From: Zymomonas mobilis subsp. mobilis ATCC 10988
Lineage (GTDB): Bacteria; Pseudomonadota; Alphaproteobacteria; Sphingomonadales; Sphingomonadaceae
Length of the DNA stretch: 32,000 nucleotides
Reading direction: 5' to 3'
Assembly (NCBI RefSeq): GCF_000175255.2
Contig: NC_017262.1
Location: forward strand, 1,830,001-1,862,000
Shown here: piece by piece, positions 18,201 to 21,700 of the stretch
How the letters are laid out: each line of letters opens with the position of its first letter
Numbering within the stretch: the stretch's first letter is position 1
The notes under the pieces: generated by a model
Seen by the model: the letters and a program-made list of their open reading frames with translations, nothing else
Databases searched by the model: none
Told to the model about the DNA's origin: nothing
Program-made: the position numbers and the translations under genes

Positions 18201-18593
18201 GATTTCTCTGTCATCGCTTTGATCGGGGTCTTCCTGTTGATGGGTATCGTCAAAAAGAATGCTATTCTGGTCATTGATGTGGCCTTGCACCTCCAAAGAG
18301 AACAGGGCTTATCTGCGGAAGAAGCCATGCGGCAATCTTGTATTTTGCGCTTCCGTCCTATCATTATGACTACTTTGGCAGCGGCTCTCGGGGTTGTGCC
18401 TTTGGCTATCGGTTTCGGTGAAGGTTCAGAATTTCGCCAACCTCTGGGTGTTACGATTATCGGCGGTTTGGTGGTCAGCCAGATGTTAACGCTGTTTACA
18501 ACGCCGGTTATCTATATCTATTTTGACCGCTTATCTCATTGGCGGCCATGGCGGCGAAAGGCCAAAGCTGAAAATAGGTTGGAGAAAGCATGA
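15294..18593 (+). CDS. mdtC: RND multidrug efflux permease MdtC (with an atypical low-complexity insertion)
   Basis: 1099 aa. The GTG start overlaps the mdtB stop (GTGA). [28 protein letters not shown]...PLERRLG...[13 protein letters not shown] and the C-terminal ...[13 protein letters not shown]...[12 protein letters not shown] match MdtC. It is about 70 aa longer than E. coli MdtC because of the insert at 17616-17826. Confidence 0.93.
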   Translation: [1099 protein letters not shown]

Positions 18594-18735
18594 CGGCCTT
18601 CTCCTCCTCGCTGATCCATCAACTATCCTTGCTGCTGATGGATAGGCCGCAGATGGATAGAAGGTCAGAACGCTTGCGAATGGTATCTCAAAAGATATCT
18701 AAAAGGCTGGACGATCCGGCCTCTTCCTGCTGGGT

Positions 18736-21700
18736 ATGGGGGTGCTGATGAAGGCTTTCTCTTCTCTTTTTGGATCAGGTCTGAAAACGGTTCATTCCAT
18801 CCAATCCGATAATCATGAAGAGGCCGAATTTTTGGCAGAGCTTCACCCCCAAATATCCCGCCACTCTAAAATCAGAGACGCTATGAGGGTTTTTCTTTCT
18901 TTAAAATCCGATACTAAGCTGACCCGTTCTTGCCGGTCACATTATCTTATAAAGGCTTCGCCCATTACGGCCGCTTATTCCCAGACTGAAATCTCCACTC
19001 CGTGTCAGCTCGAAATCTCCGGTCAGCCCCAAATTGGAAATAGTATGAAGGCCTTTTCTCTTTTACCATCCAACGCTGAAAATACAGCCAAGGCTTCCTC
19101 TTTTTCCTTATCGGAAGTTGAAAATATCACGAAATCTTCTTCTCTTCCTTCGTCCACAGTTGGAAATATCGAGAAGTCTTCCTGTCTTCTCTCCTCCAAA
19201 GTTGGGAATACCGTGAAGACCTCATCTCTTTGTCTGTCTAAAATGAGAAAGACAGCCACGGCTATAGAAAAAACGGCCAAAACCCTTTCTCTTTCGCCAT
19301 CGGATGTCGCAGCCACCGAAGGTCTTTCTTCTTCCTCGCCCATGGCTGGGAAGGCTACCAAAGCTACGCTTTCTTCACCACTCGAAGTTGAAAAATCCGC
19401 TACTGTTTATTCTCTTTCTGCGCCTGAAGTTGGGGCAGCCACCAAGGCGACGGCTTCTTCACCGCTTGAAGCTGGAAAAGTCATGACAGTTTTTTCCTCC
19501 TTATCGCCCGAAGTTGGAACATCAACCAAAGCTATTCCTTCTTCACGGCTCGAAGCTGAAAAAGCCACTATCGCTGCTTCATTTTCATCGTCCGTGGCTG
19601 GGAAAGATGCCAAAGCTACGCTTTCTTCACCACTTGAAGCTGAAAAAATCGCTACTGCTCATTCTCTTTCTGTGCCTGAAGTTGGGGCAGCCACCAAGGC
19701 GACGGCTTCTTCACCGCTTGAAGCAGGAAAAGCCATGACAGTTTTTTCCTCCTTATCGTCTGAAGTTGGAACATCAACCAAAGCTATTCCTTCTTCACGG
19801 CTCGAAGCTGAAAAAGCCACTACCGCTTCTTCATTTTCCTCGCCCGTGGCTGGGAAAGCTGCCAAAGCTACGCTTTCTTCACCACTTGAAGCTGAAAAAT
19901 CTGCTACTGCTTATTCTCTTTCTGTGCCTGAAGTTGGAAAAACTACTAAAGTTATTTCTTCTTCATCATTCAAAGTAAGAAAAAGCACTAAAGCCTTTTT
20001 CCTTTCGTCCTCCGAAATTAGAAAATCAGTTAAAGCGCTTTTTCTTTTACCGCCTCTTGCTCTGGTTTTGGCAGGCTGCGAAGTCGGGCCCGACTATGTT
20101 CGCCCTTCGGCTCCAACACCGCATCAATATAGCGGTGCCGATAACAACAAGGTAACAAATATCGCCGGAAATAGGGGCGCCACCGGTGCGACATTATCTT
20201 CTAGTAAGGCCGCTTCCGACCCGAAAAAATCGGCTGATCCAAAATCCGATCAAAAGAAATCTGCCACTGAAAATAATCCGCCACTTCCCCCCGATCAGAT
20301 CACACCCAGCGGCCAAAAAATCAGCTGGCAAGAAGCCCAGCCTATGGATCGCCAAATTAAAGATCGCTGGTGGGAATTATTTAACGACCCCGAATTAAAC
20401 AAACTGATCGAACGTTCTGATGTCGCCAGCCAAAGCGTCGCCCAAGCCGAAGCGACATGGCGTAACGCCTTAGCTGTTATGGGGCAGAACCGTTCATCCA
20501 TGTGGCCAAGCATCAGTCTTAGTGCTTCAAACCAGCACACTGTAACCGGCGGTGGTAGCGAAGTCGTCAACACTGCGGGCGGTGGTTCTTCAACCGTCAG
20601 CCGCAGCAATATCAGTGATAACTACCGCGCCGGTCTTTCTATGAGCTGGACACCGGATTTCTTTGGTGGTGTGCGGCGTCAGATCGAGAATTCACGGGCA
20701 ACTGCCGAAGCCAATATGGCCGACATCGAAACTGCAAGGCTTGCCCTTCATGCCGGTGTTGCCAGCAGCTATCTGCAATTACGAGAAGCTGATGCCGAAA
20801 TTGCAGTCATGGAACAAACCATTGCCGCTTATACACATGCCTTAGAAGTAGCCCGAAATCGTTTCAATGCAGGCATCGCGCCTGAAAGCGATGTATTCCA
20901 AGCAGAAACACAGCTATCGAATACGCGTTCCCAAATCGAAAGCCTAAGACAGAACCGCCGCACCTATGAAGATGCCATTTCTGTCTATGTCGGTATTCCG
21001 GCTGGTGATTTTCATATCGAGCCAAGGAATGACTGGAGCCCTGTTGTTCCTGACGTGCCTTTAGATCTGCCTTCTACTTTGTTGCAGAGACGACCAGATA
21101 TTGCTTCCGCAGAACGCAAGATAGAAGCGGCTTCTGCTACTATCGGAGTCAGGAAAGCTGCTTTTTATCCTAGCTTCAGCATGTCACCTTATGCGGGTGA
21201 TACGGCTGGCGACATTACACGGCTTTTGGCACAATCTTCCAGTATTTGGTCTGTCGGCGCCTCGATGGCCTTCACTGTTCTCGACTGGGGATCACATTTA
21301 TCGCAATTGCATCAGGCTCGTGCGGCCTATTCCCAAGCGGTTGCCAATTATCGGCAAGTCGTTTTGCAGGCCTATCAAAATGTAGCAGATGAAATCGCTG
21401 CAACGCAGATATACGGCAATCAAGAAACACACCTCAATGATGCATTCAAGAATGCCGATCGGAGCGAGCAGGCGACATTAAAGCGCTATCAGGTCGGATT
21501 AGTCGCCTATACTGATGTGGTTACTGTTGAAACATCGGCTCTATCAGCCAAACGCAGTCTGATGCAAACACAACTTGCCCGTCAGACAGCGGCGGTTTCG
21601 CTTATTCAGGCTCTAGGTGGGGGATGGACAGGATTGCCTCCTCGCATGCCTCCCAATCACAAAGTTTTCCACGAAGCAAAGAAACAGCGTCTCGCTGATG

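Follow-up and report, generated by a model that had tools for sequence, protein, structure and literature searches.

A lipoprotein signal peptide behind an array of start-region copies in an efflux outer-membrane factor gene of Zymomonas mobilis

How an outer-membrane lipoprotein might be made when its only signal peptide lies several hundred codons inside the open reading frame (ORF) that encodes it is the question raised by a gene of Zymomonas mobilis subsp. mobilis ATCC 10988. This gene lies in a stretch of 32,000 nucleotides (NC_017262.1, positions 1,830,001 to 1,862,000; hereafter the window, to which coordinates refer unless another allele is named) and is that of the outer-membrane factor (OMF) of the mdtABC-type efflux operon of subsp. 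mobilis, ZMO1525 in strain ZM4. The ORF (18736..21747) encodes 1003 aa, and its sole lipobox, L-A-G-C, is found at 20068-20079, with the Cys codon (20077-20079) as residue 448. An earlier note, made from the letters alone, had pointed out this placement and an ATT codon (20017) at the beginning of the signal peptide, and all of these are present in the sequence. The same applies to its nearest in-frame starts before the Cys, GTG 19924 (51 codons away) and ATG 19735 (114 codons), and to the start-free stretch from 19927 to the hydrophobic core; past that stretch, the sole start-type codon is TTG 20068, within the h/c-region. Other in-frame start-type codons before the Cys are located at 19594-19846, 19483, 19342, 19243, 19213, 19045, 18883, 18832, 18748, 18742, and 18736. 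The database protein identical to that of the window (AEH63413.1/WP_014501157.1, Z. mobilis; 999 aa) is annotated from ATG 18748, which stands 443 codons from the Cys, so the layout usual for OMF precursors (~450-500 aa, with the Cys ~16-25 residues after the initiator Met) is not found here. The reading favoured below, to which we assign a probability of roughly 60%, is that ribosomes would be relayed from mdtC via a small ORF (sORF) into the long ORF, with the signal peptide being internal to the precursor and the extension before it being discarded by LspA. The two parts of the long ORF at issue are as follows.

20017..20079, plus strand: internal lipoprotein signal peptide, IRKSVKALFLLPPLALVLAG followed by C; the only hydrophobic segment of the precursor, with a basic stretch before it; AlphaFold2 (AF2) helix at residues 435-443.
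20077..21747, plus strand: mature NodT-family OMF (556 aa, then stop); its Cys is followed by ~60 aa of low-complexity linker.

The hydrophobic segment, SVKALFLLPPLALVLAGCEV, has a Kyte-Doolittle value of 2.46, whereas the rest of the presequence peaks at 1.11, and the preceding 31 residues include eight K/R versus one D/E. The signal peptide, KSVKALFLLPPLALVLAG followed by C, combines a lipobox of the form [LVI][ASTVI][GAS]C with an h-region and a positive n-region, and is conserved in all alleles; the lipobox and h-region are near-invariant, with a single L-to-T change. Membership of the mature part in the NodT family is evident from a search of Pfam and NCBIfam profiles (TIGR01845, 367.6 bits against a cut-off of 210; PF02321, E=6.5e-44 in two stretches), and its 556 aa correspond to a normal OMF plus linker. 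A separate look at the two halves of the ORF, as the earlier note had proposed, gave the expected division: OEP/NodT matches do not begin until about residue 533, and residues 1-447 are matched by no model of Pfam or NCBIfam and hence show no match to the extended signal peptide region (ESPR) motif either. In the AF2 model, built from a 44-sequence alignment and not compared with solved structures, the OMF part has a predicted local distance difference test score (pLDDT) of 70-92 and consists of long helices and beta strands, whereas residues 1-537 score 20-45 and lack secondary structure except for the helix at 435-443, which is the signal-peptide core. The linker (20130-20320), situated between the lipidated Cys and the NodT match (model position 38 aligns to residue 533), is rich in Lys, Ser, Asp, and Pro and varies in length by subspecies, the mature part being 541 aa in the relative AN0101 and 556 aa in the window.

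An array built from the gene's own start region

Between the leader and the signal peptide, the frame is filled by the only substantial tandem repeat array within the window. Tandem Repeats Finder, the use of which the earlier note had suggested, reports periods of 42 nt (19090-19230) and 84 nt (19347-19965) as well as a 252-nt higher-order repeat (19332-19937; 2.4 copies, 92% matches). This, together with a scan using the ancestral junction described below as template, bears out the ~24 tandem 14-codon units that had been noted: they occupy 19030-20055, with five units, then an irregular stretch, and then 17 units in exact 42-nt register.

The origin of the unit becomes apparent from relatives in which the array is absent. 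One such relative, AN0101 (Z. mobilis; OMF 88% identical), emerged when a single genome of each species was scanned. Its OMF start shares an ATGA with the stop of mdtC, and the N terminus of its OMF reads MKAFFLLPPLALILAGC; the junction in subsp. pomaceae (CP002865) is the same. A repeat-free allele with mdtC-stop/ATG coupling directly onto the lipobox signal peptide, here MKAFFLLPPLAL(I/V)LAGC, had been predicted and thus exists in both. A third repeat-free relative (positions 1-143 of L009, a read-archive assembly, Logan SRR30563903) has an OMF that is 87% identical. Its start is preceded by GTAGGAAAAACAATG rather than by the GGAGAGAGCATGA overlap, and many array units are closer to this junction (up to 32/42) than to that of AN0101 and subsp. 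pomaceae.

The ancestral junction, divided into codons of the OMF frame, is CCA GTT GGA GAG AGC ATG AAG GCC TTT TTC CTG TTA CCC CCC. These 42 nt span positions -15 to +27 around the ATG and take in the GGAG Shine-Dalgarno (SD) sequence, the 3'-terminal 15 nt of mdtC, the ATGA overlap, and codons 1 to 9 of the OMF gene. Array units match the junction at 20-32 of 42 positions and have diverged to ~50-75% identity; random 42-mers of the same composition match at 10.6 +/- 2.8 positions (99.9th percentile 20), and 19 or more matches occur at 0.9% of flanking coding positions. Judged from this sequence comparison, the amplified unit is the gene's entire translation-initiation region, beyond the signal-peptide codons alone. 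The suggestion that the array arose by repeated duplication of the gene's own 5' end is thereby upheld and sharpened, since the unit also holds the SD sequence and the 3' end of mdtC; a recount likewise agrees with the 17 of 24 nt said to be shared by the first and last units. Because 42 nt equals 14 codons, each copy remains in frame. The array is made up of the following parts.

19000..19071, plus strand: conservation island around ATG 19045 (MKAFSLLPS), where the ancestral start region is better preserved (32/42) than in any other upstream copy.
19030..19239, plus strand: five older-type 42-nt units (K-x-S-S-L-x-S-S-x-V-G/E-N-x-x).
19240..19341, plus strand: irregular junction of ~2.4 unit lengths with an 18-nt register shift; includes ATG 19243 (MRKTA), the start in some annotations.
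19342..19929, plus strand: fourteen 42-nt units, which form a higher-order repeat of 252 nt or six units (2.3 copies, 92% identity); the most copy-number-variable part between strains.
19930..20055, plus strand: three terminal units, with 25, 29, and 32 of 42 positions identical to ancestral junctions.

The last unit (20014-20055) encodes EIRKSVKALFLLPP and has GTT (20029) at the ancestral ATG position; the start codon next to the real signal peptide has been lost. The equivalent codon is still ATG in three units (19045, 19483, and 19735) and GTG in one (19213), with none of these surviving units being common to all alleles. More decayed copies of the start region are found at the original junction (ATG 18590, 26/42) and at ATG 18883 (23/42); among the long leader segments that begin at 18590, 18748, and 18883, no likeness beyond the ATG-proximal parts is evident by eye. 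Gene callers have annotated antisense ORFs of 100-143 aa across the array (minus strand; 19023-19361 in the window, 2733-3119 in L004, 2733-3038 in L005, 2166-2597 in L006, and others). Frames other than that of the OMF carry many stops and differ between alleles, and these antisense ORFs appear to be by-products of repeat composition.

Head-to-tail units and polymorphic copy number between strains make the array a coding variable-number tandem repeat. The copy-number polymorphism that had been foreseen is displayed by at least 17 distinct array-bearing alleles, the proteins of which, taken from the same start, measure 831, 859, 887, 915, 943, 985, 999, 1016, 1027, or 1060 aa and so differ mostly by 14 or 28 aa; all 79 non-Zymomonas homologues retrieved are 449-503 aa in length. 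Every subsp. mobilis allele seen retains the array, and collapse to zero copies was seen in none. Two classes of leader can be distinguished: class A (the window, ZM4, CP4, and NCIMB 11163) and class B (metagenome-assembled genome W26, GCA_006539365, and SRR27593151), the latter being ~410 nt longer and barely alignable with the former upstream of window position ~18870, although their OMFs are just a few per cent apart. Further start-region-like copies, at a spacing of 72-75 nt, are contained in the leader of class B (window 18600-18870 compared with L001 2360-3050, L006, and L007).

Loss of the canonical start might be taken as a sign that the OMF is a decaying pseudogene in subsp. mobilis, with the pump using another channel as the earlier note had allowed, or that the array was created during assembly. 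In keeping with either, at least six different start codons (MGVLMKAF, MKAFSS, MRKTA, MAGKA, VAGKA, and others) have been annotated on the same or near-same DNA, and the discordance implies that gene callers are unable to place the start. We regard both possibilities as scarcely credible. The array occurs with differing copy numbers in many independent assemblies, including the complete genomes of NCIMB 11163 (CP001722) and CP4 (CP003715), with the ZM4 protein being deposited under several separate accessions, and is therefore not an assembly artefact. As for decay, the near-invariant lipobox and h-region and the in-frame indels described below speak against it, and the crippled-gene reading is refuted by two further findings. 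First, the ratio of nonsynonymous to synonymous divergence (dN/dS) of the mature OMF is 0.02-0.07 among array-bearing alleles (dS up to 0.33; dS 0.31 and dN 0.013 for the window versus L001). Second, the protein is present in two ZM4 proteome data sets: ZMO1525, which we take to be AAV90149.2 (1027 aa, 28 aa longer than the window protein), was identified by 13 peptides at 95% confidence (PMC6190654 supplement) and reached a label-free quantification log2 value of ~27.7, similar to or above those of ZMO1527 and ZMO1528 (PMC10823705 supplement). The OMF is thus alive.

A frame kept open while its residues drift

Evidence in favour of ribosomes passing through the region upstream of the signal peptide comes from DNA of ten array-bearing alleles, in which the long ORF extends 303-504 codons from its ATG to the Cys. 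The leader precedes the array as follows.

18748..19029, plus strand: leader part of the long ORF (94 codons), from ATG 18748 (MKAFSSLF...), with an SD-like G-rich run 7-12 nt upstream.

In all ten alleles the OMF frame is free of stops, whereas the other two plus-strand frames contain 11-18 and 16-34, and the minus-strand frames (counted in six alleles) 6-37. Indels among six aligned alleles are without exception multiples of three (3, 3, 3, 42, 72, 93, 165, 168, and 252 nt). L001 and L006, the most divergent pair within class B, are separated by 260 substitutions, and random placement of changes with the observed spectrum left the frame stop-free in 0.1% of 5000 trials (1.3-3.1% when only the leader was considered and 3.6-5.4% when only the array was). 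The non-array leader of class B comprises 245 codons without a stop; dinucleotide shuffles average ten stops, and none of 3000 had zero. In the shorter class A leader (99 codons, 18748-19044) there are no stops in frame versus six and six in the other plus-strand frames (dinucleotide-shuffle P ~0.013-0.015). A codon-usage frame test scores the OMF frame at +0.205 per codon in the extension, compared with +0.254 in the mature part; it is not counted as independent evidence because it is largely driven by the lack of stops.

Another of the earlier readings, in which the stretch from mdtC to the signal peptide is a structured RNA leader that is not translated and whose open frame would be a by-product of recent expansion, is very improbable in the light of these counts. 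Units that have diverged to such an extent would not be expected to leave one frame stop-free when the others hold 11-34 stops, non-repetitive leaders are open as well, and the indels keep to multiples of three; moreover, there is no start codon at the 3' end of such a leader, no Rfam match in the whole window, and no better folding of the sORF region than of shuffles (z = -0.9). What it has in its favour is that the array folds slightly better than shuffles (z = -2.0, 20 shuffles) and that each unit alternates purine-rich and pyrimidine-rich tracts.

Selection on the residues is far more relaxed than selection on the frame. The dN/dS of the extension is 0.5-0.86, exceeding the value for the mature OMF (~0.04) by an order of magnitude; for L001 and L006 the OMF frame gives 0.54 (0.39 in the array part) versus 0.8-0.9 in the off frames. 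The extension therefore behaves as a sequence that must be translated through in frame while its residues barely matter. Of the reading that a translated, repeat-rich N-terminal domain precedes an internal signal peptide, the translated extension is favoured, but the domain is not: the extension is near-neutral, variable in length, predicted to be disordered, and without homologues outside this gene. A genuine N-terminal domain was accordingly rejected, with neither Pfam nor NCBIfam matches, pLDDT of 20-45, and a phmmer search of 1.84 billion cluster representatives that returned only the same gene and two unrelated repeat proteins.

That the extension has nonetheless gained a function, be it as a cytoplasmic polypeptide left tethered to the membrane after LspA cleavage or as a copy-number rheostat that adjusts OMF output relative to the pump, has in our estimation only a slim chance of being correct. 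It would fit the somewhat lower dN/dS of the OMF frame relative to the off frames, the retention of the array throughout subsp. mobilis, and a composition that is consistently rich in Ser, Ala, Lys, Thr, and Glu; however, it sits poorly with a length range of 303-504 codons, leaders that are largely unalignable between classes A and B, the absence of predicted structure and of homologues, the high dN/dS, and related subspecies that do without any extension.

Relay, start sites and export

If the extension is translated, ribosomes must enter it somewhere upstream. The following elements lie at the end of mdtC and between it and the long ORF; the relay sORF was not described in the earlier note.

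15294..18593, plus strand: mdtC-like RND transporter gene (AcrB family; PF00873, E=3.8e-286); its stop TGA (18591-18593) overlaps ATG 18590 (ATGA).
18581..18604, plus strand: inverted repeat of nine pairs, spanning the mdtC stop and pairing the GGAGAA SD sequence with TTCTCC just past ATG 18590; flagged by the scan as a minus-strand terminator-like hairpin.
18590..18748, plus strand: relic sORF of 52 codons plus TGA 18746-18748 (MTAFSSSLIHQ...), a frame-shifted degenerate copy of the OMF 5' end (26/42); its stop overlaps ATG 18748 (TGATGA).

ATG 18590 occupies the ancestral start position and is out of frame with the OMF. The sORF is present in all ten alleles, with 47 or 52 codons in class A and 46 in class B, where it ends in an ATGA over the ATG of the long ORF (MKKKT...) and still begins MKAFFLLPT, a visibly decayed copy of the signal peptide. 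An SD-like G-rich run (ATGGGGG or GGGAGGG) is found 7-12 nt before the long-ORF ATG in all ten. Stop/start overlaps of the kind associated with translational coupling, which is predicted here from sequence, occur at both junctions in the ten alleles, and, although many substitutions have accumulated, the overlaps and the length of the sORF have endured. Ribosomes that terminate and reinitiate in turn, passing from mdtC to the sORF and on to the long ORF as a functional chain, would fit this pattern. The hairpin at 18581-18604 could hide ATG 18590 unless opened by ribosomes finishing mdtC, which would fit coupling as well. No plus-strand promoter-like or terminator-like site was found within the leader and array; the only plus-strand promoter-like match (18495-18524) lies inside mdtC just upstream.

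A sequence of events can be proposed on this basis. In the ancestor, the OMF ATG overlapped the mdtC stop (ATGA) and was followed by a normal 16-residue lipoprotein signal peptide. The 42-nt initiation region (SD sequence, ATGA, and nine codons) was then tandemly duplicated many times, and the copy adjoining the real signal peptide lost its ATG (now GTT 20029), such that the OMF would now be made only by ribosomes starting far upstream. Ribosomes finishing mdtC would restart at ATG 18590 and read the 52-codon sORF as far as TGA 18746; after termination there, they would start again at ATG 18748, which overlaps this stop and from where ~443 codons of leader and array would carry them into the signal peptide. 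The latter, with which a single hydrophobic segment and basic flank are consistent, would insert N-in/C-out as a cleavable signal-anchor; Lgt would acylate the Cys at 20077, and LspA would cut before it, releasing an ordinary mature OMF whatever lies upstream. The disordered extension would be thrown away, so that its sequence and length could drift or be altered by slippage or unequal recombination, with selection acting on the frame only. In its fullest form the proposal comprises a precursor of 830-1060 residues with a signal peptide 300-500 residues inside, processing of this internal signal-anchor by the signal recognition particle (SRP)/Sec, Lgt, and LspA, a presequence that arose de novo when the ribosome-binding site and start were copied in tandem and that is fed by a two-step relay, and a copy number that might tune channel output; the chances of the whole being right appear about even. 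Those of the single step in which the lipoprotein pathway handles a presequence of 300-500 residues are perhaps a shade better than that.

Several points weigh against this relay and long precursor. The start site is inferred from sequence, and the proteome tables (PMC6190654, PMC10823705) give no peptide positions within ZMO1525. The ORF may owe its maintenance in part to the avoidance of transcriptional polarity and not to any requirement for a fused product. Since ATGA comes with every copied unit, the overlap between the sORF stop and the long-ORF ATG is in part a legacy of the duplication and is weaker evidence than it seems. Efficient handling of a long presequence by Sec, Lgt, and LspA is assumed; no natural lipoprotein documented to carry a presequence several hundred residues long is known to us, and a literature search for internal lipoboxes or internal signal peptides found no lipoprotein precedent. 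Lastly, around ATG 19045 (~-45 to +25) there are ~4 variable sites in ~63 columns among six alleles of both classes, against ~40% variable sites around it, and divergence between L001 (counterpart 3164-3240) and L006 is 0.00-0.08 within this island against a mean of ~0.19. The island may be an internal initiation site that supplies much of the protein, or another RNA-level signal.

Should internal initiation supply most of the OMF, translation from ATG 18748 would be minor or would merely provide ribosome cover for the intercistronic RNA. The candidate sites are ATG 19045, the in-array positions 19243, 19483, 19735, and 19924, and the non-canonical ATT 20017. Besides the island, the points that lend this weight are AGGA/GGA motifs before ATG 19483 and ATG 19735 and the retention of an Ile codon at 20017 in all alleles. 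On balance we consider it unlikely. The frame is open far upstream of every candidate, most clearly through the stop-free class B leader, which would be unexpected if that part were untranslated or its product irrelevant, and any canonical internal start would still leave an extension of at least ~34 codons (at least ~110 if only ATG is admitted). A start close to the signal peptide is also thought unlikely because the in-array ATG units and GTG 19924 are missing in several alleles, and because neither ATT 20017 nor GTG 19924 is preceded by an SD-like sequence. ATG 19045 could nevertheless be a working start alongside ATG 18748, in which case precursors of more than one length may be made.

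Known systems, genomic setting and significance

Canonical NodT/OprM OMF lipoproteins (TIGR01845; OprM, MdtP/MdtQ, and CusC) share with this protein the two OEP repeats, the LAGC lipobox, and the last place in an operon ordered membrane fusion protein (MFP), resistance-nodulation-division (RND) transporter, RND transporter, OMF; the subsp. pomaceae and AN0101 relatives are fully canonical. They differ in that their signal peptide is at the N terminus, as opposed to 300-500 codons from the first usable start. Type II (N-in) signal-anchor proteins and internalised signal sequences are established, and resemble the present case in having a single hydrophobic segment far from the N terminus with positive charges on its N-terminal side. 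Here, however, the segment ends in a lipobox and should therefore be cleaved by LspA, freeing the lipoprotein instead of retaining it as an anchor. Autotransporters and two-partner secretion proteins, which are substrates of signal peptidase I, carry the ESPR as a conserved motif of ~25 residues; the ESPR, too, is an N-terminal extension before a normal n-h-c signal peptide and is removed along with it, whereas the extension described here comprises hundreds of residues, is unconserved and repeat-derived, and belongs to a signal peptidase II (lipoprotein) substrate. A literature search combining lipoprotein signal peptides, N-terminal extensions, and tandem repeats yielded no useful precedent.

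With respect to the repeats, the opa genes of Neisseria carry CTCTT pentamers in the region encoding the signal peptide; these are not multiples of three, and changes in their number switch expression on and off by frameshifting. Both systems place a slippage-prone repeat of strain-variable copy number in the signal-peptide coding part of an envelope-protein gene. In the Zymomonas locus, by contrast, the unit is 42 nt long and includes the ribosome-binding site and start codon, and all variants are in frame. The reading frame is not switched, and given the unit length, the ten in-frame alleles, and indels in multiples of three, the array is not a phase-variable on/off device. Translational coupling by overlapping stop and start codons (ATGA, TGATG) occurs in operons, and both the mdtC stop, which overlaps ATG 18590, and the sORF stop, which overlaps ATG 18748 (in class B, the corresponding ATG), follow this pattern in ten of ten alleles; what differs is the arrangement of two couplings in series via a relic sORF, itself derived by decay from a copy of the 5' end of the gene downstream. 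To our knowledge no case of serial coupling through such a relic has been described.

The operon preceding the OMF gene, which is last in MFP-RND-RND-OMF order on a single strand, includes two further genes.

10813-12159, same strand as the OMF: MFP gene.
12199-15297, same strand as the OMF: first RND gene.

The ZM4 locus was identified by cluster look-up as ZMO1525 with ZMO1527-1529, the latter three being reported as induced by phenolic aldehydes (PMC4578398). ZMO0282-0285, ZMO1429-1432, and ZMO0798-0801 were rejected as the counterpart operon, each encoding a different pump. ZMO1525 itself is not mentioned in the text of the literature searched, nor was any description of the locus found. 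The mdtC-like protein (1099 aa) contains a low-complexity insertion of ~75 aa rich in Ser, Asn, Thr, Gly, and Ala (residues ~783-860; 17640-17880) that divides the ACR_tran profile match into two stretches and is also present in the repeat-free AN0101 orthologue. Downstream of the OMF gene, a GC-rich hairpin of 13 pairs with T-runs (21772-21803) separates it from a convergent EamA-family gene and is probably a shared (bidirectional) terminator. Farther away, a short AT-rich tandem repeat (periods 20 and 29; 26565-26627) is found in intergenic DNA beside the 5' end of a TonB-dependent receptor gene (23202-26351, minus strand).

The start question can be addressed directly, as ZM4 is genetically tractable and both ribosome-profiling data (Vera et al. 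2020, PMC7566282) and proteome data have been published for it; if the long precursor is made, tryptic peptides such as ATLSSPLEAEK and SATAYSLSVPEVGK would be expected from codons 1 to ~470 of ZMO1525. The array also provides a ready-made marker for strain typing, in an operon of which the other genes are reported to be induced by lignocellulose inhibitors in an industrial strain. The locus also offers a clean and datable example of new coding sequence arising from a translation-initiation region, in which a start codon is lost, an upstream copy takes over, and selection acts on the frame and not on the residues. If the long precursor is real, this would be the first natural lipoprotein that we know of to be reported as exported with a presequence of hundreds of residues, and it would bear on how far Sec/SRP targeting, Lgt, and LspA tolerate changes in the position of a signal peptide.

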